From: an uncultured Christensenella sp.
GTDB taxonomy: Bacteria > Bacillota > Clostridia > Christensenellales > UBA1242
Length of the DNA stretch: 58,121 nt
Direction: 5' to 3'
Assembly (NCBI GenBank): GCA_964439345.1
Contig: CAYTNS010000001.1
Location: forward strand, 13,001 to 71,121
The notes below the pieces were generated by a model. It was given only the letters and a program-made list of their open reading frames with translations, had not been told where the DNA came from and made no database searches. Every line of letters starts with the position of its first letter. Positions within the stretch are counted from its first letter, which is position 1. Position numbers and translations under genes: made by a program. Below are positions 1-41,688 of the stretch, piece after piece.

Positions 1-326
1 CTATTAACCTCGTCATCAATGCTATCATAATATTTTTCAGCCATTAGATATGTGCTAACCATATTAGGCCTAGCCTCGTCTAATTTTTCTATAATATCTG
101 GATTATCCAATTTATAAGATTTGCTCTTTACGATACTTTTATTTTGGGTATGCGAAATATCTTGAGAAGCATATCCACAATGTGGGCACTGCTCCACAAA
201 ATAATGCCATAGATTAAAGTATCCTGTAGCACCATTATTCTTTTTGGATATATATAAATTTGTCCTTAATTCGTTATCAAAAGCAAATTCATATCCACAT
301 ATACAACACTTTTTAGTTATCATCAT
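1..326 (-). CDS. Zinc-ribbon protein, DUF2225-like (N-terminal part only; gene runs off the left edge)
   Basis: Absent from the ORF track because it is truncated by the window edge. My reverse-complement translation from ATG at 326 reads MMITKKCCICGYEFAFDNELRTNLYISKKNNGATGYFNLWHYFVEQCPHCGYASQDISH... and stays open to position 1. An AGGTGG Shine-Dalgarno lies ~8 nt upstream. The two CxxCGY pairs resemble the zinc ribbon at the start of DUF2225 proteins. Confidence 0.6.
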   Translation of the reverse strand, partial: MMITKKCCICGYEFAFDNELRTNLYISKKNNGATGYFNLWHYFVEQCPHCGYASQDISHTQNKSIVKSKSYKLDNPDIIEKLDEARPNMVSTYLMAEKYYDSIDDEVN

Positions 327-856
327 AGCACCTGCACCACCTTTATTTATTAATTTCATTATAACAAATATTTTTTTCAATTTCAATAAGTTTAGTTTCC
401 TTTGTTTAAAAAGATTTACCCTTTTATATTATATTTTTGTATCATATTCCTAAGTTGTGCATACATAGATGCTATTCGCCATAGCTCTACCACATTATTT
501 TAAAAAGAAAAAACACATTATTTTAAAAGGAAAAAGGCACTTTATTTTAAAGGGATATACTTATAGTATAAGCCCAAACAAAGCGCCTGATATTTAAAAC
601 AATTTACCCCTTTAAGAGTCTTTTCCTCTAAGTGTAAATTGATAAGTCCTTTAATGAGGAAAGACAATCTTTTTCTATCCCCACTTCATACTATTCGTGG
701 GAATACGATTGTGTGACTAACTAATAAATTTAGAAAAAGTTTTAGATAAAACCAATTTAAAATATAACACTCCAAAACACTTTTATTTCTAGATTTACAA
801 TAGCTAATCTCATATTATGGCAAATCATAAAAAAGAGGTTATGCTGTAGCATCATA

Positions 857-1168
857 TTATCTACGATTTTTAGCATAATCCTCAGTTACTTTAAGTAACA
901 TATCAAAGTTGTCATCGTCTGCCGATTTATTCCTCTTTATTTCGCCACACTTAGCACATTTAAAGGATATTATATAACCTTTCTTTGCACTAGGTTCGAC
1001 CATTATAGGTTTCATTAGTCCCAAACAGGTATTTGCCCTATCCCCTGGGATATTATCTATATGAATGGAATGCAAACAATATGGGCAGTGATTTCTACTA
1101 GTGTATTTAAGTGGTGGCACTTCCCTGCCACAATTTCTACATACAAAGGAATTATCATTTTTTATCAT
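857..1168 (-). CDS. RNHCP domain protein (small zinc-ribbon protein)
   Basis: The literal RNHCP motif is present (TSRNHCPYCLHS), with flanking CxxC pairs (CRNCG, CAKCG). The start overlaps the radC-like stop by 14 nt. Confidence 0.85.
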   Translation of the reverse strand: MIKNDNSFVCRNCGREVPPLKYTSRNHCPYCLHSIHIDNIPGDRANTCLGLMKPIMVEPSAKKGYIISFKCAKCGEIKRNKSADDDNFDMLLKVTEDYAKNRR

Positions 1169-1937
1169 AGTTCACCTCGTATCTTGCCTCAGGCTGAGCA
1201 ACAGTCCTACTCTCTAGTAAGTACGCAACCTCTTCCTTGTATTTATCAATCATTCCCTTTTCTCTATAAGAATAGAATTTATCTCCAGCAAGGATTATAT
1301 GGTCGAGCAGGTGACAACCATTAATACTTAAGGTCGTAACTAGTGCCTTAGTGAATTTATTATCTGCCTCCGATGGAGTGGCTTCGCCATCGGGGTGATT
1401 GTGAGCAATTATGATATTAGCGACCTTTAGGGACGACATAATATCCGATATATCTCTAATAGTTACTTTAGCCTCGGTATTGCTACCCGAAGAAACCCTC
1501 TGCACTTTCAATATCTTTGACTTAGGGCTCAATGCCACTATATATAATTCTTCCACAAGTTTGCCTTTAAAGAGCCCCTTGAAATAATCAAAAGTCTGCA
1601 AAGGTGTAACCAGTTCTGTTCTTTTGGCAAGTTTACATCTTTCGTATCTATTGTATATTTTAAGAAAATCGGATATAAATCTAGCCGAGACCTCACCCAT
1701 TCCCTTGACGGTCATTAGTTCTTCGACCGATGACTCAAATACTCCCGATAGTGAACCGAATTTATCTATAAGTTCGTGAGCCAAATCATTGGTATCTTTG
1801 TATGGTATAACAAAAGAAAGTACATATTCTAGTACTTGATAATCGTGAAAATATTCTAGCCCCTCTTTGGCTACTCTATCCCTTAATCTAGACCTATGGC
1901 CATAATGATTATGTTCAGCCACACTTACTCCTTGCAT
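1155..1937 (-). CDS. radC: RadC-like JAB/MPN domain protein (UPF0758)
   Basis: The N-terminus GHRSRLRDRV...FGSLSGVF has the RadC helix-hairpin-helix pattern. The C-terminus carries the JAMM motif IIAHNHPDGEATPSEAD. Confidence 0.9.
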   Translation of the reverse strand: MQGVSVAEHNHYGHRSRLRDRVAKEGLEYFHDYQVLEYVLSFVIPYKDTNDLAHELIDKFGSLSGVFESSVEELMTVKGMGEVSARFISDFLKIYNRYERCKLAKRTELVTPLQTFDYFKGLFKGKLVEELYIVALSPKSKILKVQRVSSGSNTEAKVTIRDISDIMSSLKVANIIIAHNHPDGEATPSEADNKFTKALVTTLSINGCHLLDHIILAGDKFYSYREKGMIDKYKEEVAYLLESRTVAQPEARYEVNYDKK

Positions 1938-2184
1938 ACAATATAGTAATGTAAATATTTAAAATACTAAGCCTATTATTTATCTACTATAAAAGCAAAT
2001 GACCTAATTACCTAGTCAATATTTGCATTATTAAAACACTATAATATTTATTATGTTACACCAAATCCACCCTTTTTGCAAGTAAAGTTATTTGTTTGAT
2101 TGACGATAAAAACTTTTTACTTTATACTAATTAAGTAATGTGATTAATACATACTATGTGTATTATATAAGTAAGGAGTAAAAT

Positions 2185-3033
2185 ATGGCTTTTAGAATAA
2201 CTTGCGAGAGCAGTGCCGACCTGAGTGCTGAAATGTACAAAAAATACGATATCCCTGTCCTTCCCTTCGCTATATCTATAGGAGAAAAAGAATACAGAGA
2301 TTTCGATTTAACCAACGAAGAACTATTTGAGCAGGTAAATAAAACTGGTACTTTGCCAAAGACATCGGCTTTTAATGAGTATGACTATGAAGAATTTTTC
2401 AAAAAAGAAAATAAAGGCGATGGCATAATCCACTTCTGCATTAGTAGCAAAATATCCTCTACATACAATAATGCCAAAAGGGCTGCCGAGAAGATGGAAA
2501 ATGTATATGTAATAGATAGTATGTCGCTATCCTCCGGTACTGGATTACAGGTAATGTATGCTATTAAACTAAGAGACCAAGGAGTGCCTATTGAAAAGGC
2601 TGTAGAACTTATCAATAATAGAAGGTCAGCTGTACAAATTAGCTTTGTGGTAGATACACTTAAATACTTGCACAAGGGTGGCAGATGTTCGGCTCTAGCA
2701 CTACTAGGTTCAAACCTACTTAGCATCAAACCTAGCATTGTACTTAAAGACGGCAAAATGCTTGTTGGCAAAAAGTATGTAGGCAAAATACATAAATGCC
2801 TAGAAAAATATGTATCAGACACTCTAGCAGAATTTAATAATCCCGACCCAGAACTATGCTTCATAACATACAGTTCGGCAACTGAAGAGATGAAAAATAT
2901 CACCCACGATATTTTAAATAAAAATGGTAAATTTAAAAACATTATAGAGACCACTGCCGGTTGCACAGTTGCAACACATTGTGGACCTAATACACTAGGC
3001 ATAATATACTACAATGATGGTGGAGAAAAATAA
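2185..3033 (+). CDS. DegV family fatty-acid-binding protein
   Basis: Length is typical (282 aa). Matching segments include ITCESSADL, the VIDSMSLSSGTG motif and the C-terminal CGPNTLGI. A GGAG Shine-Dalgarno precedes the ATG. Confidence 0.9.
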   Translation: MAFRITCESSADLSAEMYKKYDIPVLPFAISIGEKEYRDFDLTNEELFEQVNKTGTLPKTSAFNEYDYEEFFKKENKGDGIIHFCISSKISSTYNNAKRAAEKMENVYVIDSMSLSSGTGLQVMYAIKLRDQGVPIEKAVELINNRRSAVQISFVVDTLKYLHKGGRCSALALLGSNLLSIKPSIVLKDGKMLVGKKYVGKIHKCLEKYVSDTLAEFNNPDPELCFITYSSATEEMKNITHDILNKNGKFKNIIETTAGCTVATHCGPNTLGIIYYNDGGEK

Positions 3034-3171
3034 TTTACTCACATCTAATGTAGCAATGTGTAATTGTGAATATCCCAAAATCTTATTTATAAATAAATTA
3101 CCCTATTTACTAATAGCATTTATGCCCCAAAAATAAGATTTTAATAAAACCAATAGAATAAAATTGAATAC

Positions 3172-10094: not shown

Positions 10095-13000
10095 TTATTT
10101 AATAGTAGGATAATCTCCACTTACATCGTAACCTAGTGCAGACATCTTATCTTTTAGGTCATCTACATCATTAGCTTCAGTACCTATACCACTCATTAGT
10201 GTAACTCTATTTGAGCCTGCATAATCTTGGATAAAGTATACACCAGATAGATTGTATCCAGTAGAACTAGAACCATTTATACCGTAAGCATAGATATTTG
10301 TATTGCCCGAACCACTAGCATAAGTGTATCTAGCATAAGCGTAAGAATTAGAAAGTGTTACATTAGTATAAGTTGTATTCTTATCTCCTACTAAGCCTCC
10401 GATAGATATCTGTTTTACACCCGATGACCTAGCATCTACTATTACATGAGCTAAGCTATAGCAGGTATCGATAGTTACATTAGATACTTTAATAGAATCT
10501 ACTATGCCACCTACCTGACCACCTCTATAAACTCCATTGTTTGCATCGGCACTCCTATCGGTTACATATAGAGTTACATTGTAATCAACATAACACTTAG
10601 ATATAGTAGTAGCACCCTCGACGGTATCTACTATACCACCGATATTATTAGCAGTGAATGTTCCCGAGAACATATTGCCATCGCTATCTTTTTCGCCTAA
10701 GATTTTACAATTTGTAATAGTTGAGCTATCTCCCGAAGTCTTTCTAGCAATACCACCGATAACGGTTGATTTATTAGTAGCACCATCGTCTAATACTGTG
10801 ATATTAGCTGTGACGGAGGAATTAGTGATAGTTCCCTTATTATCTAGTACTAAGCCACCCACATAGATGCCGTCTGTTGTAATAGCCTTGATATCTATTA
10901 CAGATGGTTGAGAAGAATTGTAATCGATTGTACTATCTTCGTTATAAGTAGTCTTGGTTACAATATTTACATTGCTTAGAGTACCAGTATTATTGATAAC
11001 AACACCGGCTATCTGGTATTCACCCTTGCTACTAGTATCCTCTATCTCGTACTGGATTTGGAAGTCGATATTTTTGATAGTTCCCTTGTTATTTAGGATA
11101 AATGCTACATAAGTAGTCTTATCGTTATTAGCCTTTGGCTCTACAGATAGATTAGAAATAGTATGTTTGCCAAGGCCAAGTAGTCCACTACCATTGATAG
11201 TACCAGTAAAGGTATCTATCATCTCCCATTTTTCACTCATTACGATATCTGATTTTAATGCGTAATGACTATCAGGGTAATTTCTAATATTATTTAATTG
11301 AGTCTCATTATGTATTACATAAGGAATCTTTGGACTACCATTACCACTATAGAATAGACTGAATGAACCTCTAGGGCTAAAGTTATAAGTGCTAGACTTA
11401 TAAGAATTAGAAGATGTATTGACTGAATCGTAAGCAGTAGCAACTAATGCAAAGCTATAATTACTTGCAACCGATTTAACCTTGTAACTAGTAGGAGTCA
11501 TTATACGCTCTGTACCATTTTTATCTGTACCCCTATAAGCCATAACTAGCACTGTATCTCTAACAAATAGTGTATACGATTGGCTCCAACTCTGATAGTA
11601 ACTAACTATCTGTCTTTCCTTAATCTCATCGTAGTATAGATATTCTTCATCGAAGTCAGCATTTGTAGCAGTTCCTGCAAAATTAGCACTTTCCTCAGCA
11701 ACTGTGCCTGTCTTGTGAGCAGACTTAAACCAATCGTCCTTTTGTGAAGATGTTACATCACTAATCTTATATTCAATATTGATAACTATATTGTATCCAA
11801 CATATATATCTTCAACATTGGTCATTGACCATGTTAATGTACCTGTGCTAGGGTCATACTGACCATTGGCTGGTTTAGATGGAATAGCTACAACTAATCT
11901 ATCACTATAGCTACTGCTAATAGTTGCTCTGTAGTCGTCTTGGCTACCAATCTCGATAACCTTGCTATCATCGCTTGGGTCAACCTTGCTAATAGTTTCC
12001 CATAGTCCCGTCTCGGCATTATATGAACCAGTCTTTATATTACCAATTGCTTGAACAAAGGCATATACCTTAAGTCCACTATCGGTATCACTAACATTAA
12101 TATTTTTAAGTAGTGCATTCAATTTGAATTTAATCTCGTCCTCATTTGCTTCGAAATAATCGTTATTTGAGCCATCTAAGTCATTAAATACAACATCGCC
12201 TACTAGGTTAGGGTCGCTAATTCTAATGCTATAATTATTTTCACTATTTTTAATAATAGTATAAACATACTCAACATCTGCTAAGAAGAACTTTAATCTA
12301 TATGCACTAGCATCGCTAATAGTATTCCACGAAATCCTATTTTCTTCATTTGCATTTTTATTAATTACATTCTGTAGAACAGGAGTACTTAATTTAGTTA
12401 CATAGAATTTCTTCTGCTCGGAAGCTAGATAGAATTGTTTGCCAATATTTTCGGCATCATCGCTACTACCCTGTGTACCCTTGTACATAATGGTAATATC
12501 GTGTTTACCTACTTTATAAGTTTGCTCGTCAATCTCTGCACTATATCCCTCTTGATTCTCTAGAGTAATATCGGTAAAGTATGAATAAGATAGTATAGTA
12601 TTATCTGCCAAATCTACCTTGTTGCCATCAATTGTAAGTACACTAGCAGTAACCGATTGTCCTGCCTGTTCGTCACCCTCGGTACCCCACTCAAATACAC
12701 CTTCATTTACTCTAGGTACTGGTGGAGCAATCTTAGTAACACCGATAGGAGTAGAATAACTACTATTAATGTATCCACAATCAGCTACAGCAATAGCCTT
12801 AACCTCGATGCTAATACTACCTAAAACGGTATTTAGTATAGCGATTGATGGAGTATTATCGGTAGTTGCACTGATAGCACTCTTGCCTGAGAATTGATAT
12901 GCTATAGCATAGTTATTGATAATGTTATTGTATACAATGCCCTTGTTCCAAGCAATCTTGCCTGTATCATCTATTACAATGCTGGTTGGAATATCTAATC

Positions 13001-16000
13001 TATAATATCTACCAGTAGTAATAGTGGTGGTCTCAGTTGCATCGGTTGGGCTAATAAACATTGTCTTTTTATCGGTTGCTGTAGTATCGGAATCAAAGTA
13101 TCCCTTAGATATCTCATAATTAGGAACATCGTTTGAACCTACATTTTCTACATTTGTAGCAACTATATCTAGGCTATACTTATAGCCTTTTTTATTAAGT
13201 TCTACATCGCTATCTGGCTCGTAATAGGTTTGTCCTACTACTAATATATCTCTCTTAACAACCTCAGCTATTGCATTTTCCTCGCCGTCAACATCTACAT
13301 TAGTTGCCTTAAGAGTTAATTTATAAGCATTAGCATAAGGTACTGGTTTCCAAACAAATACACCTGCCAAATCGTTTTGACCTAGCCAGTAATCAACTTT
13401 CTTTACGTAGCTAGAGCCATTATCAAATTCGATTCTCTGGTCTATCTGTCTAGTAGCACTAGTTGTGCCTAATTTATAAGCATATATTTTATCCGATTCT
13501 GGGCTATCTATTACACCCCTATTATCACCTATTTCTTGCTTATAAATCGCATATCCTCCCGTTGGGAAAGATGCGTTATCGGTAAATGTATATTGATTAG
13601 CTCTAGCACCGTCTTGACTAGACAAATCAACTACTTTTATCCTCTTTTCGTATTGTAATCTATTGGATTCCACCTCAGATATAAGAGTTGCTTTTCTGCT
13701 AGGACTAATACCCTTAAAGGCATCTTCCTCAGCAACACCATCTAGGTATCTTAATTTTGCTAGTTCCTCGGTAACTATAGTTTGCTTAGACCATTCTCCA
13801 GCAGTCTCGTCCTCTTTTAATTCACCATCTTGGATATTAAGTGGACCATAGATTCTTAATTTTGTGCTGGTGGAATTAGTATTGTAATCCCAAGTCAATT
13901 GTCCATTTGTAACCTCTGGAACATCGGTTGTAAGGATAGTCATAGTATCACTAAACATATAGTTATTACTATTTAGGAATGCAACCTCTCCTTCCTCTTG
14001 AAGAGTGCTATCCTTGGTACCATTAGCTAGTATAAATAATCTGTATCTAGTATCTAGAGCAACTCTATTATTCTCGTCCTCGCCGTAGAATAATTCCTTG
14101 ATATCCCTAGAATATTTGTAATTATCATACACATTAGGGTCTTTATCTGCACCAGTTAAGTCGCCTACTGTTACACTAGCACTCACTCTAGTCTCGCTAT
14201 CCTTTGTAACAGCCCTTAATGTATAATCTTTGTGATAAGGCGAGGTTTCACCATCGTCTACTGCATTGATTACAGATAGTTCCCATAGTGCTTTACCTCT
14301 AGCAATATCATTTTTAGATGTAATGGTATCATATAATTGATTGCCATCGTCATCTAATTCTGGATTGCCCTCTTCATCTACTCTAGGTACTTGAGTAGTA
14401 ACACTATCGTACCAGCTCTTTGGAGTAGATAATTTATATGCAGTAAGTATGCCAGTCTTAGCACCATCTAGGACACTTTTTGAGTCTCCTACTGGGCTAA
14501 CATAAATTTCGTAGTAACCAGCATTATATTCGATACCTGCCGAATTGGTAACCGATGTAACCATATCATCTGGGTCGGCATCTGCATCGGTATTAAAATC
14601 GGTGTGGATAGATACATCATAAGTAAATTCCACCCTGTCGCCCGATTTGTAATCCTGTACAACTTCGCCTCTAGAATTTAGAACAACAGCATCGGTTGGT
14701 TTATCAATAGTATCGATGCCATTGATATTTAATTTAACCTTGTAGAAATGCTCTAGGGAAATGCTACCATAAGTTTCCTCATAAGCAGACTCACCTTTTG
14801 TAGCCATATCAATTAAATATGGAACAAATGTGGAAATATCTATCGCTGCTTTTTCACTAGCAGGAGCAATATCATCTTCATCTCCCTCATCTGGTGAAGG
14901 CTCTGGTAATTCTACTCCAGCCATATATGTCATAAGCTCGGTATATGAAATAGTCCAGCTAAGCATTCCGTCTTTTACTTTGTAATTGCCTAAAGCATTA
15001 GGTCTAAATACTTTAAGTGTATCGGAGTGAACGGCATCAGCGTCTTCCGATACTATGCCAATCTTAGGGTCGGTAACAGCTAAAACCTTAACTGTCCAGT
15101 AACCATTGCCTAGTTTATCGGTTAGTATGCCAGATAATGTGCCATCATTTAGGTCTAATTCTGTGCCATTTTTGTATACCTCGTACGAAGCTCCTAGTGC
15201 ATTAGAAAATCTAATCTTATAGGAATAAGCCGATGGTAAACTAGACCAAGTAAGTTTGCCTTGAGTAACCTCAGGGGCTGTCATATTAGCAATAAAATTA
15301 ATCTTTGCCTCATTACCAATATCGGATAAATCGGAACTTAATAATCCAAATACAGCATTGGTATTTCCAATTACCTGCATTCTAATATTGTATGAACCAA
15401 CTGGAATATTAGAAGACAATTCAAAGTATTGTTTTTCGCTAGATGGGAATGGCTCAACACTAGTCTCTATACTGCCATCTTCCTTTTCGTAATTAACCTG
15501 CAATTCTGCACTCTCTAGGTTAGGGTTTTCCCAATACAAAGCAGGTACACCCATAGAAACTACTGTACCGTCATCTCTAATAATAGAATCAGTTCTGCTG
15601 ATAGTTAAGTTCTTTAGGGCTTTTAATTTCTTAAATGAGAATGCTCCCGACCATTTGCTATTTAAAGCACCAGTCTTTCTAGACATAACTCTAACAGAGT
15701 AAATCTCATCACAAATATATGTAAATGTAGTAGAAGCATCTAGACCTTGGGTCTCAATATCTTCGTTATCGTCTGGGTCTACGGGCTCTGGAGTAACCTC
15801 GGTAGATAATACCTTTAGATTGGATATTCCTCCCTCACCCTCGGTGATAGTAGATGGGATAGAAACTTCTGCCCCACTCAATGTATAATCAAAGGTAGCA
15901 ACGATTGTACCGGTAGAATCTTTTACTTCTACGCTATATTTTTCGGCAGTCTCGACATTTACCCAAGTAAGTGCTCCCGACTTAGAAGAAACTGCAGTAG

Positions 16001-19000
16001 TAGTAGGTAATTTATCAAAAGTGTATACAGTAGACGCCTCACTACTCATTACACTGCCACCATTTCCAACAAATTGAATGGTTGTGCCATATACACCATC
16101 TTCATCAAATGATGCAATGCCTAGGGTGGAAATATCTATTGTATAATTGCCCTCACTAGTAAGTGATGCATATTCGGAGAATGCCATAGTAATAGTATGA
16201 ACATCTGCTCCAAATTCGTAACCCTCACTAGCACTAGGATTTTCTTCTCCCTCTTCTGGAGTAACTACTGTAACCTTGCCAACTTTAATTACAACTTGAC
16301 TAGGTTCGTTATTTTCTATTGCCTCATAAGCACCATACTCAAATACTCCACTTTCTCCTACATCTATGGTTACTAGATTGTGTAATTTAGTAACCTTGGT
16401 TGAAACGGAATTACTATTTAAGTATCCAGTAGTTGATATAATTGCTGTAATCTTATATTCATACTGACCAGCCTCGGTGATAGCATCTGGCTTAAATTTG
16501 AATACACCATCTACAAAATCAAATAGGTCAGCACTAGCAGGAGTATCGCCTCCCGAAATTAATCCCCCATCGTCTATTAGAATGTAGCAAACATAGTCTG
16601 AGCCATTCTTAGAAACCTTTAGGGAAGTCTTGTAATTATTATCTAGTAAAATCTCATATCCAGTAGCATAGATGGAACCTATCTCTACTGGTTTCCATTG
16701 TAGGTAATCGCCAACTTTAGCAAATTCTGAAACATTGGATAATTTATTGAGAGTATAAGCGTCACTAATATCGCTATCTACCGAACCTAAGAATGTTACA
16801 CCTATGGCAATCTGAACTTCACCACTAGATAATCCAAATAGATTGATTAAGTGATTACCCTCATTTACGGTATCGCTATATAGGCTAGATGGAATTAATG
16901 TTCTATCTTCGCCACTAACACTATACAATTGGATAGAATAATCTTTATCGGTAGCATAAGGGAATTTTAATAATCCACTAGCAGTTGTAATACTAGAGTA
17001 CTCAACCGATGCTAATTTAGTAATAGAAGATAGGCTTCCTGCCTCTTTTAGTATCACTCCACTACCCACAAAGTCTACAGTAGGAGTAATCTCAATAGTA
17101 TATTTACCTGCATCTTTACCTGCAAATGAAATATATTTTTTATCTAAATTTGTAAGAGTTAGGATATCCTCTGAAGCAACAGTCTTCCAAGAAGTATCAC
17201 TACCCTCATCTTTGTGATATCTAACCACGTAATCTGCTCCTGCTATGATATTCCAAGTAACCTTGTCGTCCATAGCACTAGCCATCAATTTACCGTTAAC
17301 TACAGTAATGAATATATTAGGGTCATTACCCTCAGCACTTTCAACTGAAGCACTACTAATAATATATGGATTATCTTCGCTGTATCCAGCAGTAGTACTA
17401 TTAGTACCGTATGCGATTAGGCAGAAATTATATTGTCCCTCTGCTAGGTCGGAAGGGATTAAATATTGCAATGAACCACTTGCTGGAATATCTAGAGTTT
17501 CGTTTGAATTAAAGATACTCTTATCACAAGTTAGTCTATATCCAGTAGCACGAGTAATTGCCTCCCACTTAAGGATTGGCTCACCACTCAAGGTTGTGCC
17601 TCTTTGTAAACTAGCAGTATCTAATTGAGTAGTATAGAATCTAGCACTAGCTTTACCTGCAAATTTAGAAGAAACTAATTCTAAGATTTCTATGCCAATG
17701 ATTTTGCCCTTGTACTTATATAAAATACTAGAGATATCATAGGAATATGAATATCTATCTGCCGATGGAGTACCTTTGGATTGTTCGGTAAACTTGGTAT
17801 CTACTGCGCTAAGCACTCCATCAATATAGAATGTCAATTGATATGTTGCATCGTCAGTGCCTACTGGCTCTGAATCGGTTCTACCAGTCGTAGATAACCA
17901 GCTAAGTATGCCATTAGCATTCATACTAATACCTGTAGGAATTGCCGAACACTGGAAGTAAATTTCGGTCTCAATAGAATCTATCTTGCCTAGTATTCCT
18001 GTGCTACCAGTAGCACCTACAGCATAGATTTTGAATCCAACATTTCCCTCATCGCCAACATAATCTAGTATGCTATCGCCACTGCCGTCATTTACTTTTA
18101 GACTAGCTAGATTGATAGTAACATACTCACCCTCAAGTGAACCTTGAGTTTCCTCCGATACTTTATCTCCATCTGGAGTAATAATCTTGACTACATATTT
18201 ATCGCTAACGCTTACAAATTTTAAGCTATTTGAGCCTAGTAATTGAATATCAGCAATATTTGCTACTCTAGTGAAATTAACACTAGCAGTAGATGGAGAA
18301 GATATAGTAACCTTTGCACCCTTTACATTGCTATTTGCAACTAGTTTAAAGGAGTAATTACCCTCAGCCTCTAGATAAGCATTTATCATAGCATCGGTTA
18401 TATCGCTAGGAACTCTAGTATCTATCCTACATAGTATTACCCTGATAACATTATAAAGGCTAAATGTTCTATAGCCATTAGAATCGCTATCACCTAGTGG
18501 AACGATGTAATCGCCATCAACTACATCATCTAGGTTTGCCCCCTTTTTCAATGTAACCGATTGAGTAGCATTATCTTTAGTTAAATAAATGGTGTAATTA
18601 TTAATTTCGGTATTTTCTTTATCAGACGCATCTTCATAAACGGTTTTAAATTTAATTACACCCTTAGAAGAAACCGAACTATCTGATGGAGTAGAAAGTA
18701 CATTACAGTAAGATAGTGGATTATTGGATATCTTGCCAGTCAATGTCTTAACCCCTAAAGTGTATTCACCCACTAATCTAGCATAAATCTTATAAGAACC
18801 CGGTACTAATTGAGCATTGGTAATATCATAAGAAGTATTCTCTACTATTACACTTTTTGATAGAGTAGCATCTTCGATATTTACAAAGTAAAATTCTACA
18901 CAACCTGCGTTATCTGCAACAATTGAAATGATATTGTCGGAGATTGACCAAGTTGGGATATCAAAGCCCTCTTCGCCCGTCTCGGTTATGCCGGTAATTT

Positions 19001-36842: not shown

Positions 36843-37601
36843 CTACGCAACAGGAGCATCAAGACTCAAGCAATTACTAACTTGACTTGCTAAAACTCCC
36901 GTCCTCTCCAACATATATTGTTTTCTTGCTACAGCCACATCTGACTGTCCTTGAAGTGGTTGGTAAGAATCAATAATCTCAGGAAGTTTTTGTGAAAGAT
37001 TTTCCCTTGTGATACCCTTGTGTTTTAACGATGAATCACTAAGCCTAGCATACATACTAGCCACTTCTTCTGTTGGAACAAATTGACCCCAAGGCTGTTG
37101 CTCCATCTTTCCCACATCAATTCCTAGCTCTTCTAATATTGGAGCAAGGAACATCAAATCTTTTGCAACTTCGTCTATTCCTATCATTTGGATTGGCAAA
37201 TGTTGAAATAATCTCTTATCCTGTTTTTCTGCATCTCTATTATATTTTTTAGCATTATTCGTCACCCATGTATCATGGATTTCTTTTAAAATAGTCATAA
37301 CCGATGTCATAACCTGCTCTCTAGACATATCTTGAGATATTTGCCTTCCTAAATTTTCAAAATAGCCCTCTGGAGCGCTCTCTTCTCCAGTAAGATATTC
37401 CGTTTTAATCATTTTCCCATTTAATATATGCTTTTCTATACCCCATTTTGCTGCCATAATAGAACTAGAAGCATACGATTGCTGATCTAATTCCTCACAT
37501 GTTGATGAATTTGCCAACTCTAGTGCTTGATTATAATCCATACCATTCCAAGACATCAAGGCACTTACATGTGCTCTTTTTGCTGCTGATAAATTTGACA
37601 T
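36843..37601 (-). CDS. Hypothetical 252-aa soluble protein (orphan), adjacent to the tRNA-linked repeat array
   Basis: Clean ORF with a GAGGAGG Shine-Dalgarno. No family recognised. By eye its codon style is less CTA/ATA-rich than the neighbouring genes. Confidence 0.65.
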   Translation of the reverse strand: MSNLSAAKRAHVSALMSWNGMDYNQALELANSSTCEELDQQSYASSSIMAAKWGIEKHILNGKMIKTEYLTGEESAPEGYFENLGRQISQDMSREQVMTSVMTILKEIHDTWVTNNAKKYNRDAEKQDKRLFQHLPIQMIGIDEVAKDLMFLAPILEELGIDVGKMEQQPWGQFVPTEEVASMYARLSDSSLKHKGITRENLSQKLPEIIDSYQPLQGQSDVAVARKQYMLERTGVLASQVSNCLSLDAPVA

Positions 37602-37863
37602 AAACTCCTCCTCAAATATACTTATATTAATATTATATCAAATTATCCATTAAAAATCAATTACCTATAAAAAAATAAATACTATAATGTAATTGCCTCA
37701 TTTTACTATCGAGTGATTACTGAAGTTCGCAATCGCGATAGCGATTTCTCGTGGTTTCATAATATCATATGAAAACACGAGCTTGTAAAAAAAGCAACCG
37801 TGTGCAGGGCACACCTCCTCGGGAGTAAATATAAAAAATGCACCCAGCAGGGTGCTAATTTTT

Positions 37864-38037
37864 TGGTACTCCCGTACATAGTAGATTATCCATAGCTTAG
37901 GCCGATTGGAGAATCGTCTATGCCGTCGCCAAGACGGTATATCTCACGAGCAAAATGTCTTGCATTTTATTAGCGAGTGAGTACAAGTTCGATGGTTGCT
38001 AAAAGCAACCGTGTGCAAGGCACACCTCCTCGGGAGT
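37864..38037 (-). ncRNA. Candidate structured RNA, unit 2 (174 nt) closed by a tRNA acceptor-stem mimic plus ACCA
   Basis: The 5' ACUCCCG pairs with the 3' CGGGAGU, followed by ACCA. The internal hairpins are the same as in unit 1, with differences confined to loops. The terminator hairpin at 37827-37863 has a different stem sequence that still pairs (gcaccc/gggtgc). Confidence 0.4.
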
Positions 38038-38076
38038 AAACACAAAAAATACACCTCATTGAGGTGTATAATTTTT

Positions 38077-38250
38077 TGGTACTCCCGTACACAGTAGATT
38101 ATCCATAGCATAAGCCAATTGGAGAATCGTCTATGCCGTCGCCAGACGGTATATCTCACGAGCAAAATGTCTTGCATTTTATTAGCGAGTGAGTACTAGA
38201 GTTCGGTGGTTGCTAATGCAACCGTGTGCAAGGCACACCTCCTCGGGAGT
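38077..38250 (-). ncRNA. Candidate structured RNA, unit 1 (174 nt) closed by a tRNA acceptor-stem mimic plus ACCA
   Basis: The minus strand reads ACUCCCG-AGGAG-[GUGUG/CACAC]-[GGUUGC/GCAACC]-...-[CUCAC..GUGAG with inner AAAAUG/CAUUUU]-[CCGUC/GACGG]-[CAUAG/CUAUG]-...-CGGGAGU-ACCA. A terminator hairpin follows at 38038-38076. Confidence 0.4.
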
Positions 38251-38289
38251 AAAAACAAAAAATACACCTCGATGAGGTGTATAATTTTT
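38251..38289 (-). terminator. Intrinsic terminator hairpin directly after tRNA-Glu
   Basis: The minus strand reads AAAAAAUUAUACACCUC-AUC-GAGGUGUAUUUUUUGUUUUU. Confidence 0.6.
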
Positions 38290-38364
38290 TGGTACTCCCG
38301 AGGAGAATCGAACTCCTGATTCCGCCGTGAGAGGGCGACGTCTTAACCGCTTGACCACGGGAGC
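38290..38364 (-). tRNA. tRNA-Glu (anticodon CUC), CCA encoded
   Basis: Hand-folded cloverleaf. Acceptor GCUCCCG/CGGGAGU (G1-U72 wobble); D-arm GGUCAAGCGGUUAAGAC, as in Bacillus tRNA-Glu; anticodon stem UCGCC/GGCGG with loop CU-CUC-AC; 4-nt variable loop; T-arm AGGAG-UUCGAUU-CUCCU; discriminator A plus CCA. Confidence 0.92.
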
Positions 38365-38383
38365 AAACTCTTTCAACTATATA

Positions 38384-38412
38384 AGTATACTACAAATCCG
38401 ACCGAAATGCAA
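38384..38412 (-). promoter_or_regulatory. Sigma-70-type promoter for tRNA-Glu
   Basis: The minus strand reads TTGCAT-17 nt-TATACT, ending ~20 nt upstream of tRNA position 1. Confidence 0.5.
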
Positions 38413-38683
38413 GTAGTTTTTATGTTTTTTTGCCAAATTTGAGCTTTTGAGGGGCTGTGACAAAGATATTTGCCCAATTAAAGGGATTTTTACGAGAAAA
38501 TAAATTTAATAAATTTTATAAAAACCACATAAAATTTGCAAGTTTTACATAATTTTAACACTTGTGGGCACAAATCCACACAAAAGATATTTGCAAAAAA
38601 AATATTACTGTGCTAAACTTATAATAGGTATTGGCTATAAAAATGTAGTCCATATCCTGTATTTTAATTAAGGACAAAATCTA

Positions 38684-39730
38684 ATGAAATACCACGATTT
38701 AAAAATAGGAATTGTGGGAACGGGTAGTCTAGGTCCAGTACTGGCTGTAGAACTAGCATCTAATGGTTATGATGTAGAGCTGGTTTCTAGTAGCAAAGGA
38801 ATGTACATAGACGACTCTAAAGCCTTTCACATAATGGGAGATTTTGGGGATAAAACCTACCTAGTTCCTACTGTAAAGACGATAGCAGATTTCACTACCA
38901 AAAAAGACTTTATAATACTTGCAACCAAGGCATTTCAAACGGTCAAGATTGTAGAAGAAGCACTAGAGCATCTAACACCCGTAGGTGCTATTGTCACGGT
39001 GCAAAATGTCTTTTCATTAGACAGAATATTCAAATTAGTCCCACCGGAAAAATCTATTTGCCTATATCTAGATATCTTCACGCTATCTAGACCTTATGGC
39101 AGATTGGTAGTAGACTCGGGTGGAATAACTATGGGAGTATATGATAAAGATGTATTCCCTATGATGCAAGTACTAGAAAAGATTATGAGGGAAATGTGCG
39201 ATACACACATTACCAATAATGTCTGGGGATATCTACTTAGTAGGAATATAATGAATGCCACCATATCTGCCCTAGGCGCTATATCTGGATTGCCTCTAGG
39301 AGATATCTTAGGCAATTACAATGGCTGTTATCTATTCAATAGACTGATAGAAGAGGGCTACTCCCTACTAAAGAAATTTAGAGTAGGAATACTGCCTTAT
39401 GCCGGTAAACTGGATTACGAATTATTCACCAGCAAGACCATAAAAGGCAAGATTTACAATCGTAAGATGACTAAGATTATGAGGAAAAATAACCCACATA
39501 TTAGGTCATCTATACTAGACGACCTAGAACAAGGCAGAGAGACCGAGATTGAGTATGTACTAGGTAGCTTTATAAAGTATGGCGATAGATTAAAATTTAA
39601 AATACCATACACCAGAGCAATATACCAAATGATTAAGGAAATAGAAGCTGGGACAAGAAGAATTACCCCAAAAGCATTCTATGACCCAATGCTTGTTAAT
39701 ATAGATAAAAAGAGAGGATATAAAAAATGA
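38684..39730 (+). CDS. Ketopantoate reductase (ApbA/PanE) family oxidoreductase
   Basis: N-terminal Rossmann motif KIGIVGTGSLGPVLA. The C-terminal domain has the ...GRETEIEYVLG... pattern typical of the family. Confidence 0.65.
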   Translation: MKYHDLKIGIVGTGSLGPVLAVELASNGYDVELVSSSKGMYIDDSKAFHIMGDFGDKTYLVPTVKTIADFTTKKDFIILATKAFQTVKIVEEALEHLTPVGAIVTVQNVFSLDRIFKLVPPEKSICLYLDIFTLSRPYGRLVVDSGGITMGVYDKDVFPMMQVLEKIMREMCDTHITNNVWGYLLSRNIMNATISALGAISGLPLGDILGNYNGCYLFNRLIEEGYSLLKKFRVGILPYAGKLDYELFTSKTIKGKIYNRKMTKIMRKNNPHIRSSILDDLEQGRETEIEYVLGSFIKYGDRLKFKIPYTRAIYQMIKEIEAGTRRITPKAFYDPMLVNIDKKRGYKK

Positions 39731-40347: not shown

Positions 40348-41688
40348 TTACTTGGCAAGGTTATCAAATTTGTCCCTCATCTCCATCTGTTTGCCACAGC
40401 ACATTCTGCCCTCGGGACAAACTCCATAAGTATAGCAACTAGGGCCATAGCCCTCAAACATCTTGCTATCTACCGACTTTAATTGCCTTAGCATCTCGAT
40501 AGATAAATCTCTAATTACCCATTGTGCTCTAGAGCAATTCCTTAGGTTGCAGAAATGCAAAAGTTCTCTAGCATTCATAGTGCTTACTAGGTCTACACCT
40601 GCTCCATGTGGGATTAAGTAAACTAGGTCTCTAGGGTCTAGAGCCCCTCTAAGTTCATTATATAGTTTTCTATTTTCTCTTATGCACTTTTTGAAGTCTT
40701 TGGTTAGTTCTTCCCTCTCTAATATCGTTTTAGGAATTACAAATTTACTAGCATCAACCATTTTAACTAGTGGTGGGGTGGCTAGGGATTGCATTCTATG
40801 ACGAGTTAGGTGCTTTAGGATAATTAGGGCGAAATTATGCACCTTAAAGGTGTAATTAAAGTGCTCTAGTAATTTAGCCTGTTTATCGTCCTTTAGTGCC
40901 GTCTTTAAATCAAATTTCTCATATCCTGTACTCAAGGCAAACTCATCTAAAGTCTCCCTTGCATTATTTGGATAAGAAATTAGTTCTACATCTTGATATA
41001 CAAATTCTACCTTATCTACCGGCTTTGGATTAACATCTAGTACGCTATCCAATTGGTCGGTATAGGCATTTTTGCTACTCTCTATTAGATTTGGATAACG
41101 GCTATCGAATTGCTCCTTTAATTGCAATCCAAGCGCTTTAATCTCACTATACTTAGAGCCTCTGCCATATATCATTGTGCAAATAATATGTATTAGTTCC
41201 CTAGCATTGACACTCATATAAATATTGGTCTTTAGTCCATAAGGCAAGATAAACCTTGCGTCCTCTACTGGGATACCAGCACTTACAAATTTATCGTAGT
41301 ATTTAAACATACGCTTGTAATGAGCCTTAACCTTTGCTTTTTGCTCCAATGTAAAGGTATCTGGCAAATTAAATCCAGCACTGCTAAAATTAACATATCT
41401 ACCCGATTTAATAGTAAATGATGCTAGTCTAAATTCTATCAAAAATTGCTCTACAAAAATAGAAACATTATTAAAAGCTAGATTAAAATAATGATGTTCC
41501 AAAACAGTCTTGTGACCGGAGGACACCACCTTGGATATTAGGTTTAGATTTTTATCTTTATCGGTAGCACCCCTATATAATTCTATAGCCGTACCCGGCC
41601 TAGTAGATATCCTACCTCCACAAGAAACTATCCTCTGTCCATCTTTAGTTTCGCTAAGTATTAGCACTCCACTTTCATTTTTTTTCAT
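40348..41688 (-). CDS. thyX: FAD-dependent thymidylate synthase ThyX, fused tandem (double-domain) form
   Basis: Two ThyX-like halves. Half 1 reads SGHKTVLEHHYFNLAF...EFRLASFTIKSGRYV...ARFILPYGLKTNIYMSVNARELIHI. Half 2 reads LTRHRMQS...MNARELLHFCNLRNCSRAQWVIRDLS. The C-terminus is Cys-rich (GPSCYTYGVCPEGRMCCGK). Confidence 0.85.
   Translation of the reverse strand: MKKNESGVLILSETKDGQRIVSCGGRISTRPGTAIELYRGATDKDKNLNLISKVVSSGHKTVLEHHYFNLAFNNVSIFVEQFLIEFRLASFTIKSGRYVNFSSAGFNLPDTFTLEQKAKVKAHYKRMFKYYDKFVSAGIPVEDARFILPYGLKTNIYMSVNARELIHIICTMIYGRGSKYSEIKALGLQLKEQFDSRYPNLIESSKNAYTDQLDSVLDVNPKPVDKVEFVYQDVELISYPNNARETLDEFALSTGYEKFDLKTALKDDKQAKLLEHFNYTFKVHNFALIILKHLTRHRMQSLATPPLVKMVDASKFVIPKTILEREELTKDFKKCIRENRKLYNELRGALDPRDLVYLIPHGAGVDLVSTMNARELLHFCNLRNCSRAQWVIRDLSIEMLRQLKSVDSKMFEGYGPSCYTYGVCPEGRMCCGKQMEMRDKFDNLAK

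Follow-up and report, generated by a model that had tools for sequence, protein, structure and literature searches.

A tandem array behind a tRNA-Glu gene of an uncultured Christensenella sp. probably consists of tRNA-linked repeats

What are the tandem, structured units that follow a tRNA-Glu gene in an uncultured Christensenella sp., and why does each appear to be closed by a tRNA acceptor stem? We addressed this question in a 58,121-nucleotide stretch of GenBank assembly GCA_964439345.1 (contig CAYTNS010000001.1, positions 13,001 to 71,121, forward strand), hereafter the window, in which coordinates are given unless another contig is named. An earlier reading made from the letters without database searches (the sequence-only reading) had described the units as an RNA element of unrecognized kind with a mimic of the acceptor stem, and had named nested attachment (att)-site scars as the alternative. 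Here, we find that the array has the features by which tRNA-linked repeats (TLRs) are operationally defined, together with the finer anatomy of the Escherichia coli RtT repeats. It probably belongs to the same kind of element as RtT/rttR and rrA/B/F, and is a new example of an old kind, not a new RNA class. We know of no earlier report of TLRs in this lineage or behind this tRNA, based on a limited targeted literature search.

Anatomy of the array

The tRNA-Glu(CUC) gene lies at 38290-38364 on the minus strand, with an encoded CCA and a G1.U72 pair (ARAGORN; Rfam RF00005, 60.9 bits), and is the sole tRNA that ARAGORN finds in the window. Tandem Repeats Finder places a repeat at 37790-38300 with a period of 213 bp, 2.4 copies, 92% matches and a score of 850. 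Together, these results confirm the initial description of a tRNA-Glu followed by tandem 213-bp units. On the minus strand, the order is promoter, tRNA, terminator 1 (T1), unit 1, terminator 2 (T2), unit 2, terminator 3 (T3) and a decayed unit 3; sequence reading and a terminator scan both bear out this order, which had been given before with a third copy at its end.

Both full units are 174 nt long and lie on the minus strand, unit 1 at 38077-38250 and unit 2 at 37864-38037. Each starts with ACTCCCG and ends with CGGGAGT-ACCA (38087-38077 in unit 1, 37874-37864 in unit 2), and unit 1 comprises a closing stem and hairpins H1-H5. The two units differ in 10 alignment columns (~94% identity). Unit 1 starts 39 nt past the CCA of tRNA-Glu on the same strand, and the terminator alone intervenes.

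The likeness to the tRNA extends beyond the acceptor stem at both ends of the unit. Both units end in CGGGAGTACCA, which is the last 11 nt of the tRNA. The repeat after the tRNA (R1) and the repeat after unit 1 (R2) are identical over 28 nt, made up of 11 nt of mature tRNA and 17 nt of trailer, and the tRNA-end/trailer identity common to all three copies is 19 nt. A displaced CGATTCTCC (T-loop/T-stem) sits 32 nt upstream of the unit's tRNA-end copy. At its other end, unit 1 opens with ACTCCCGAGGAG (38239-38250, minus). This is the 12-nt end of the tRNA body in reverse complement (CTCCTCGGGAGT, from the 3' strands of the T-stem and the acceptor stem), and the same motif opens units 2 and 3. The acceptor copy was therefore correctly recognized at the unit ends, while its extent of 7 nt was too short, since the unit start is complementary to 12 nt. 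Because of this complementarity, the tRNA end, T1 and the unit start together form a palindrome with 32-nt arms (38239-38305).

The three terminators lie on the minus strand, and all score on both strands. T1 (38251-38282, hairpin 38262-38282) has the stem AUACACCUC/GAGGUGUAU and a U-run and is bidirectional, T2 (38049-38069) is of the same type, and T3 (37840-37855) has the stem GCACCC/GGGTGC. The region holds nine terminator-like sites against 0.8 expected. The stem of T3 had been called completely different from ACACCTC/GAGGTGT, which does not hold, as the CACC/GGTG core is common to both and the difference comes down to one compensated pair and one added pair.

The remnant of unit 3 occupies 37699-37826 (minus). 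Its first 33 nt (37826-37794) are intact, as noted before; the copy does not stop there and continues in decayed form to ~37699. H2 has been replaced by a U-run and an inserted hairpin (37748-37781), and the decayed block at 37699-37729 is 84% identical to unit 1 at 38175-38205. As a separate observation, the insert at 37727-37781 (minus) contains a hairpin with 14-bp arms CTCGTGTTTTCATA/TATGAAACCACGAG and an overlapping palindrome centered on TCGCGA. It lies upstream of the promoter of a 252-aa gene that follows the array, and could be an operator or another small insertion.

The copy number of the array is read from a single metagenomic contig. Units 1 and 2 diverge by ~6%, and the adjacent intergenic DNA differs by 7% from that of a second strain (L005). 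If the assembler had walked repeat, body and repeat twice over two strain variants, the 2.4 copies would become 1.4 with the same anatomy.

Comparison with E. coli tRNA-linked repeats

TLRs were described in 1978 behind tRNA and rRNA genes of E. coli (Egan & Landy 1978, Rudd 1999; PMC8144298). In E. coli K-12, ten loci carry between one and five TLRs each, 22 in total; the repeats adjoin a tRNA or rRNA gene downstream, and over their last 18-19 bp they are the same as the 3' end of that gene (PMC8144298). TLR transcripts are processed near the repeated 3' end, which has been proposed as the processing signal, and most TLRs have no known function; a stringent-response phenotype of rtT was later reassigned to the neighboring open reading frame (ORF) (PMC8144298). 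Parts of the RtT structure have covariation support according to Rivas (PMC8250186).

The Christensenella array likewise lies downstream of a tRNA gene on the same strand, its units share their 3' ends with that tRNA, though over a shorter stretch of mature tRNA than in E. coli, and it numbers two full units and one decayed unit, within the range of one to five. For the finer anatomy, we used the E. coli MG1655 locus with tyrT, tyrV, the 171-nt ncRNA rttR and the tpr ORF (L020; NC_000913.3 1286000-1288200), which has a 178-bp period and 3.1 copies. Its four RtT elements each end in the last 19 nt of the tRNA with CCA, and the closing helix of the Rfam RtT consensus pairs GGGGAAGG with CCUUCCCC of the tRNA-end copy. 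The correspondence with our array is close: both stand directly behind a tRNA gene on its strand, both consist of tandem units of ~180-210 bp (3.1 copies in E. coli, 2.4 in the window), and in both the last part of the unit copies the tRNA 3' end including CCA. In both, furthermore, a reverse-complement fragment of the tRNA 3' region pairs with that copy and closes the structure, and a direct T-arm fragment is found in the units. The shared closing helix, a tRNA-complementary segment paired with a 3'-end copy, is an architectural analogy, not homology.

The two systems also differ. The window units have neither sequence nor covariance-model similarity to RtT: the Rfam family (RF00391) has no match at 37400-38700, with E<=10 allowed, or anywhere in the window at its gathering threshold of 45 bits, whereas the E. 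coli locus, as a positive control, gives four matches of 133-137 bits. Hence, the array falls outside the RtT sequence family. It follows a tRNA-Glu(CUC) gene in a low-GC uncultured host, as opposed to a tRNA-Tyr gene in an enterobacterium. Every window unit has its own intrinsic terminator, while tyrT transcripts end by Rho inside the repeats. The window units also lack a counterpart of the tpr ORF; among their small ORFs we found no credible coding sequence, and the translation of a spurious 77-aa ORF matched no gene-called copy elsewhere.

The second E. coli parallel is with rrA, rrB and rrF, which lie between the dual terminators T1 and T2 of the rrn operons and are made by read-through of the preceding terminator (PMC8144298). 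There, as in the window, two intrinsic terminators downstream of a stable-RNA gene enclose a structured RNA that lacks its own promoter and whose 3' end repeats that of the upstream stable RNA. The rrn elements follow 5S rRNA, however, with one copy per operon, and they bind Hfq and CsrA via GGA motifs. Their expression and processing have been demonstrated, whereas both are predicted for the window units.

Beyond RtT, we looked for other known RNAs at the locus. Rfam, run permissively (E<=10) on 37400-38700 and at gathering thresholds on the whole window, returned the tRNA as its one real match, and no family matches the units; hits to mir-70 and CRISPR-DR63 are palindrome artefacts, all below threshold. 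A tmRNA was found neither by ARAGORN nor by Rfam, and a T-box leader gave no Rfam match at E<=10. ToxI-type arrays are short tandem repeats of about 34-45 nt upstream of a toxin gene in one transcript. The array does not fit this type, having 213-bp units, each with its own terminator, and a downstream 252-aa ORF with its own promoter, no known domain and no linkage in relatives. The sequence-only reading had not connected the units with a known kind; their architecture is that of the E. coli TLRs.

Predicted folding of the units

Both units have a very stable predicted fold (-65.7 and -63.4 kcal/mol; z = -5.6 and -5.9), and none of 200 shuffles was as stable. By minimum free energy, each forms a closing stem of ACUCCCG with CGGGAGU and five hairpins, and the five hairpins named earlier are all present in the folds of both units. 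The palindrome at T1 has a predicted energy of -38.8 kcal/mol. In the predicted fold of a read-through precursor, it captures the 3' strand of the tRNA.

The differences between units 1 and 2 bear on whether these structures are selected. The loop differences pointed out before (AUUA versus UUUUA, UGGC versus UUGGC) are real. Paired positions make up ~68% of the total, yet eight of the 10 columns that differ are unpaired. Of the other two, one is a change from G.U to A-U, and one breaks an apical pair. By a binomial estimate, this avoidance of stems corresponds to roughly p = 0.003-0.02, although the test has some circularity, as the sequences compared also served to predict the structure. The consensus that RNAalifold derived from three sequences was uninformative. 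Altogether, the distribution of these differences and the conservation of the unit body in a relative (below) lend modest support to the argument for selection on RNA structure.

The locus in relatives

Relatives were located through the neighboring PanE protein. In L007 (PanE 87% identical), the same tRNA is accompanied by a T3-type terminator, an inverted acceptor copy (GTACTCCTAAG, versus its own CTTGGGAGTAC) and an H1-like hairpin, and the next gene follows directly. This locus thus has the palindrome and H1 without the unit body, a state that fits loss or never having been gained alike. L008 and L009 (PanE 81% identical), which come from two samples, agree with each other and have the tRNA-unit module inverted relative to PanE (L008 1-345, plus strand). 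Their order is tRNA 3' end, T3-type terminator, a 55-nt "mini-unit," T1-type terminator, TGGTACTCCCTAGGAG and a homologous body, where TGGTACTCCCTAGGAG is a perfect 16-nt complement of the L008 tRNA 3' end including CCA. This body has no 3' acceptor copy, and the full-length unit of L008 therefore has no closing stem. Among these tRNA-Glu loci of relatives, which the sequence-only reading had proposed to check, the body is thus present in L008/L009 and absent from L007. Since the T3-type terminator directly follows the orthologous tRNA in both L007 and L008, it is probably the ancestral one. Separately, the mini-unit between the two terminators of L008/L009 has a 10-bp stem, CUUUUGCGAG/CUCGCAAAAG, and ends in UACCA; it reads as a second, much shorter element of the design "stem + ACCA + terminator."

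The unit body of the window is 71% identical to that of L008 (global alignment z = 5.8-7.0, p<0.001), while the adjacent intergenic DNA is not alignable between the two (z ~0). Changes of U-A to G-C and of G-C to G.U leave H1 and H2 intact and preserve pairing on the tRNA strand alone. The inverted acceptor copy tracks the tRNA of its own genome, with CTCGGG/CCCGAG in the window, CTTGGG/CCTAAG in L007 and CTAGGG/CCCTAG in L008; the base at the T-stem/acceptor junction is C, T and A, respectively, and the inverted copy follows with G, A and T. Overall, the palindrome is kept in three lineages and the body in two.

Wider searches were negative. More distant PanE relatives have no tRNA at the PanE-adjacent position. 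A unit profile (nhmmer) against all 359 kb of collected DNA found no further copies, and neither did a scan of genome contigs with the pattern TACTCCCNAGGAG..CACGGTTG, which gave six chance matches in coding DNA. The body pattern had no matches in metagenome and viral contigs, and the palindrome pattern had 24 in metagenome contigs, all of them chance matches or convergent tRNA-Glu pairs. Three short-read contigs from close strains and relatives (L005, L006 and L018) end at the anticodon loop of this tRNA (L005 1-60, L018 1-36). These breaks probably come from a second tRNA-Glu gene (UUC, probably) that shares the 3' half, not from the units. In a GC-rich contig, L027, there is a perfect palindrome of ~100 nt at ~11950-12069, which surfaced only because it contains GGGAGTACCAA and its complement, and which may be either a genuine long inverted repeat or a hairpin artefact of assembly.

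Origin of the acceptor-stem mimic

The complementarity to the tRNA is not limited to the first 12 nt of the unit. The complement of CTCCTCGGGAGT is followed by a 32-nt insertion containing H1 and H2 and then by ATCGAACT, the next stretch of reverse-complement tRNA (8-9 nt); in the L008 counterpart, reverse-complement pieces of 16 nt and 9 nt surround a 34-nt insertion. Further inside the unit, CGTGAGA and GGCGACG occur in reverse-complement tRNA order. This interior collinearity has p = 0.012-0.03 versus shuffles (unit 1, unit 2 and L008) and is suggestive only. Based on these pieces, the "acceptor mimic" is best explained as a descendant of a reverse-complement copy of the tRNA 3' region into which hairpins were inserted.

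A simple series of events would produce the present arrangement. The tRNA-Glu 3' region would have been copied in inverted orientation across its bidirectional terminator, and the resulting reverse-complement pseudo-tRNA would have gained hairpin insertions (H1, H2, the inner hairpin of H3, and H4). The segment of tRNA 3' end, terminator and body would then have been amplified in tandem by unequal recombination, with the crossover at the microhomology CGGGAG, which in any acceptor stem is present between the 3' strand and the complement of the 5' strand. The reverse-complement tRNA starts with ACTCCCG and ends with CGGGAG, and the direct tRNA 3' end also starts with CGGGAG. A crossover there would place the repeat boundary exactly at the edge of the acceptor stem and give units of the form ACUCCCG...CGGGAGU-ACCA, and we infer that a closing stem and ACCA tail could arise in this way without selection for mimicry. 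The acceptor-stem mimic thus need not be a selected tRNA mimic, both because any reverse-complement tRNA copy pairs with a direct 3'-end copy and because the closing stem is not conserved (it is absent in L008). On two unrelated metagenomic contigs of higher GC, L034 (14088-14240) and L039 (5627-5777), tRNA-Glu(CUC) faces a reverse-complement tRNA-like sequence over one bidirectional terminator. This arrangement would correspond to an intact version of the proposed palindrome ancestor, the candidate second partner being cut by the contig end.

The E. coli repeats look tRNA-derived in the same way. Inside rttR (L020 1067-1237, minus), a 22-nt stretch agrees at 19 positions with the tyrV 3' region in reverse complement (p<0.001 versus shuffles), and the interior also holds a direct T-arm-like copy; it is these two matches that suggest a derivation of RtT like that of the window units.

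Weighing of alternative explanations

Could the units instead be dedicated small RNA genes that mimic tRNA, with the 7-bp stem, discriminator A and CCA under selection and the RNA acting as a substrate or decoy for RNase P, the CCA-adding enzyme or further factors that bind tRNA? Stem and ACCA are flawless in both units, and the very stable fold is closed by this acceptor-like stem. The mini-unit of L008, with a stem of unrelated sequence, UACCA and a terminator, could be an independent case of "stem + ACCA," and E. coli RtT likewise ends in the CCA end of its tRNA. We nonetheless consider such genes unlikely, given that the homologous full-length unit of L008 does without the 3' acceptor copy and hence the closing stem, and that descent from reverse-complement tRNA accounts for the stem without selection. 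In addition, no T-arm is stacked on the stem, and the 12-bp acceptor/T minihelix that RNase P usually recognizes is absent; the palindrome with the upstream copy (arms of 28-32 nt) competes with the 7-bp stem, and no promoter was found in the units. A neutral by-product without RNA function, whether from slippage duplication of a palindrome-prone terminator region or, for unit 2, partly from a two-strain assembly artefact, would fit the decay of the third unit and the absence of the body in L007. It would also fit the ~6% divergence of units 1 and 2, which resembles the 7% between strains nearby (versus L005), and the L005, L006 and L018 contigs, which end inside the tRNA and leave the array without an independent assembly. 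Against this stand the conservation of the body versus L008 next to intergenic DNA that is not alignable, the co-variation of the inverted acceptor copy with the tRNA in three lineages, the avoidance of stems by the differences between units 1 and 2, and the agreement of L008 and L009 from two samples. This conservation counts against full neutrality and says nothing on copy number, and we regard this explanation, with or without the partial artefact, as unlikely.

The scars of serial integrase insertions have a similar outward appearance. Integrases at tRNA 3' ends leave att-site repeats, which can give rise to cis-mobilizable elements and tandem accretion, and the array shares with them direct repeats of a tRNA 3' end after an intact tRNA gene. 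On such a reading, nested att scars or miniature cis-mobilizable elements would have accumulated at the tRNA-Glu 3' end. It accommodates the tRNA 3'-end repeats that flank each unit and the arrangement of the terminators, in which the distal one is of the ancestral type and the two proximal ones are of a second type, as if inserted between the tRNA and an old trailer; L007 is readable as the empty site. Elements of this sort do exist in the lineage, as a relative has a serine-recombinase/Rep element at tRNA-Glu(UUC). In this relative (L002, found via the 252-aa protein), a module of Rep (REP_ORF2-G2P) and a large serine recombinase at 264-3053 abuts the 3' end of tRNA-Glu(UUC), and the called recombinase ORF runs antisense over the entire tRNA gene; the module is probably a small integrated element. 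The array differs in that no integrase, cargo or foreign DNA was found with it. A Pfam scan, which covered 30 of the 34 window ORFs of at least 130 aa (outside it were three, including a 3476-aa ORF, and one overlapping the DegV gene), detected no recombinase domain. A blastn search of 50,697 phage and 72,556 plasmid records matched nothing beyond the tRNA, and viral contig scans were empty. The 213-bp "element" would be one without cargo, and homology extends along the entire unit, both between the copies and with the native trailer of L008. Similarity among the copies runs past the terminator into the next 33 nt, which is unlike att identity blocks, and the same architecture in E. coli is not integrase-derived. 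Without an integrase or any phage or plasmid similarity, the att-scar alternative of the sequence-only reading is unsupported, and we consider it very unlikely, the distal position of the ancestral-type terminator being the main observation in its favor.

Several observations also weigh against our own assignment of the array to the TLRs. L007, the closest relative with a long contig, lacks the unit body, and the third unit of the window is decaying; both imply that the body is dispensable. The body is found in only two independent lineages, too few for covariation statistics. Identity to the mature tRNA is 11 nt (plus trailer), compared with 18-19 nt in E. coli TLRs, and the interior collinearity with reverse-complement tRNA is of nominal significance only. 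Because T1-T3 look like efficient terminators, read-through into the units may be negligible, and the copy number comes from one metagenomic assembly.

Proposed operation

With these points taken into account, we favor tRNA-linked repeats as the identity of the array, and the E. coli examples suggest how it might operate. A promoter scan found no promoter-like site inside the units. As for E. coli rrA/B/F, the units would be made only by RNA polymerase reading through the preceding terminator, and their level would consequently be a fixed small fraction of tRNA-Glu transcription. The tRNA 3'-end copy, trailer and terminator would give each unit tRNA-like signals for 3'-end maturation, and the resulting structured RNA would be ~174 nt long with ACCA at its end; both the read-through expression and the processing are proposed here by analogy. 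The part that is conserved across species, the long palindrome pairing the tRNA 3' strand with its downstream inverted copy, would in read-through transcripts compete with the cloverleaf or offer a duplex of ~30 bp for processing.

The idea that a tRNA-end copy may be a substrate for tRNA-end processing, put forward in the sequence-only reading, has real precedent. A parallel is offered by plant mitochondrial t-elements (PMC1920247) and other acceptor-stem mimics that serve as processing signals, since a transcript other than a tRNA could recruit tRNA-end processing enzymes through an acceptor-like stem at its end. The t-elements belong to a different domain of life and have no homology to the units, for which processing is putative. 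A more far-reaching proposal is that TLR-type elements arose independently outside the Enterobacteria and that their acceptor-stem/ACCA RNAs undergo RNase P cleavage and tRNA-like trimming and then work on the tRNA machinery, e.g., as decoys or sensors coupled to tRNA-Glu transcription. We hold this combination to be quite unlikely.

Chromosomal setting and neighboring features

The tRNA gene has a likely promoter, read from the sequence, at 38384-38412 (minus), with TTGCAT (38412-38407), a 17-nt spacer and TATACT (38389-38384). TTGCAT misses the 4-of-6 rule that the promoter scan applies to the -35 hexamer; the arrangement is kept in the L007 ortholog as TTGCTT-17-TATAAT. In the scanned region, promoter-like sites number seven versus 5.7 expected. 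The array is surrounded by gyrB, gyrA, an aminotransferase, PanE, YqeY, ThyX, SerRS and TyrRS, an ordinary chromosomal setting.

Directly downstream of the array is the 252-aa ORF (36843-37601, minus), which has no Pfam domain. Its family comprises 61 proteins, nearly all metagenome-derived and three NCBI-only, with variable genomic context, and in relatives it is unlinked to the tRNA or the units. Its promoter is TTGATT-17-TATAAT with a TG (37632-37660, minus). A near-consensus TTGACA-16-TATACT (11/12) at 37595-37622 on the plus strand lies within the start of this gene and opposes its promoter. It would give an RNA of ~235 nt over the decayed unit 3, stopping at the plus face of T3 (37840-37855), and may be a chance occurrence in AT-rich DNA. 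Elsewhere in the window, the 3476-aa ORF lies at 10095-20525 (minus), and ThyX (40348-41688, minus; 446 aa) has two Thy1 domain matches, which looks like an internal duplication.

Significance

The array provides a comparative handle on an old unsolved repeat class. It is unrelated in sequence to the E. coli repeats and stands behind another tRNA in a distant, uncultured low-GC bacterium, yet it has the same three ingredients as they do: a reverse-complement tRNA fragment, a structured body and a direct copy of the tRNA 3' end. It also explains in simple terms how "acceptor-stem mimics" can come about when mimicry is not selected for. Arrays of this kind interrupt short-read assemblies and can pass for att sites or novel RNA classes. 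If TLRs did arise independently and their ACCA-ended RNAs are cut by RNase P and act on the tRNA machinery, this would suggest a general function for a repeat class that has lacked one since 1978. Altogether, the recurrence of the architecture suggests that it arises repeatedly from tRNA genes themselves, and it may be widespread but unannotated.

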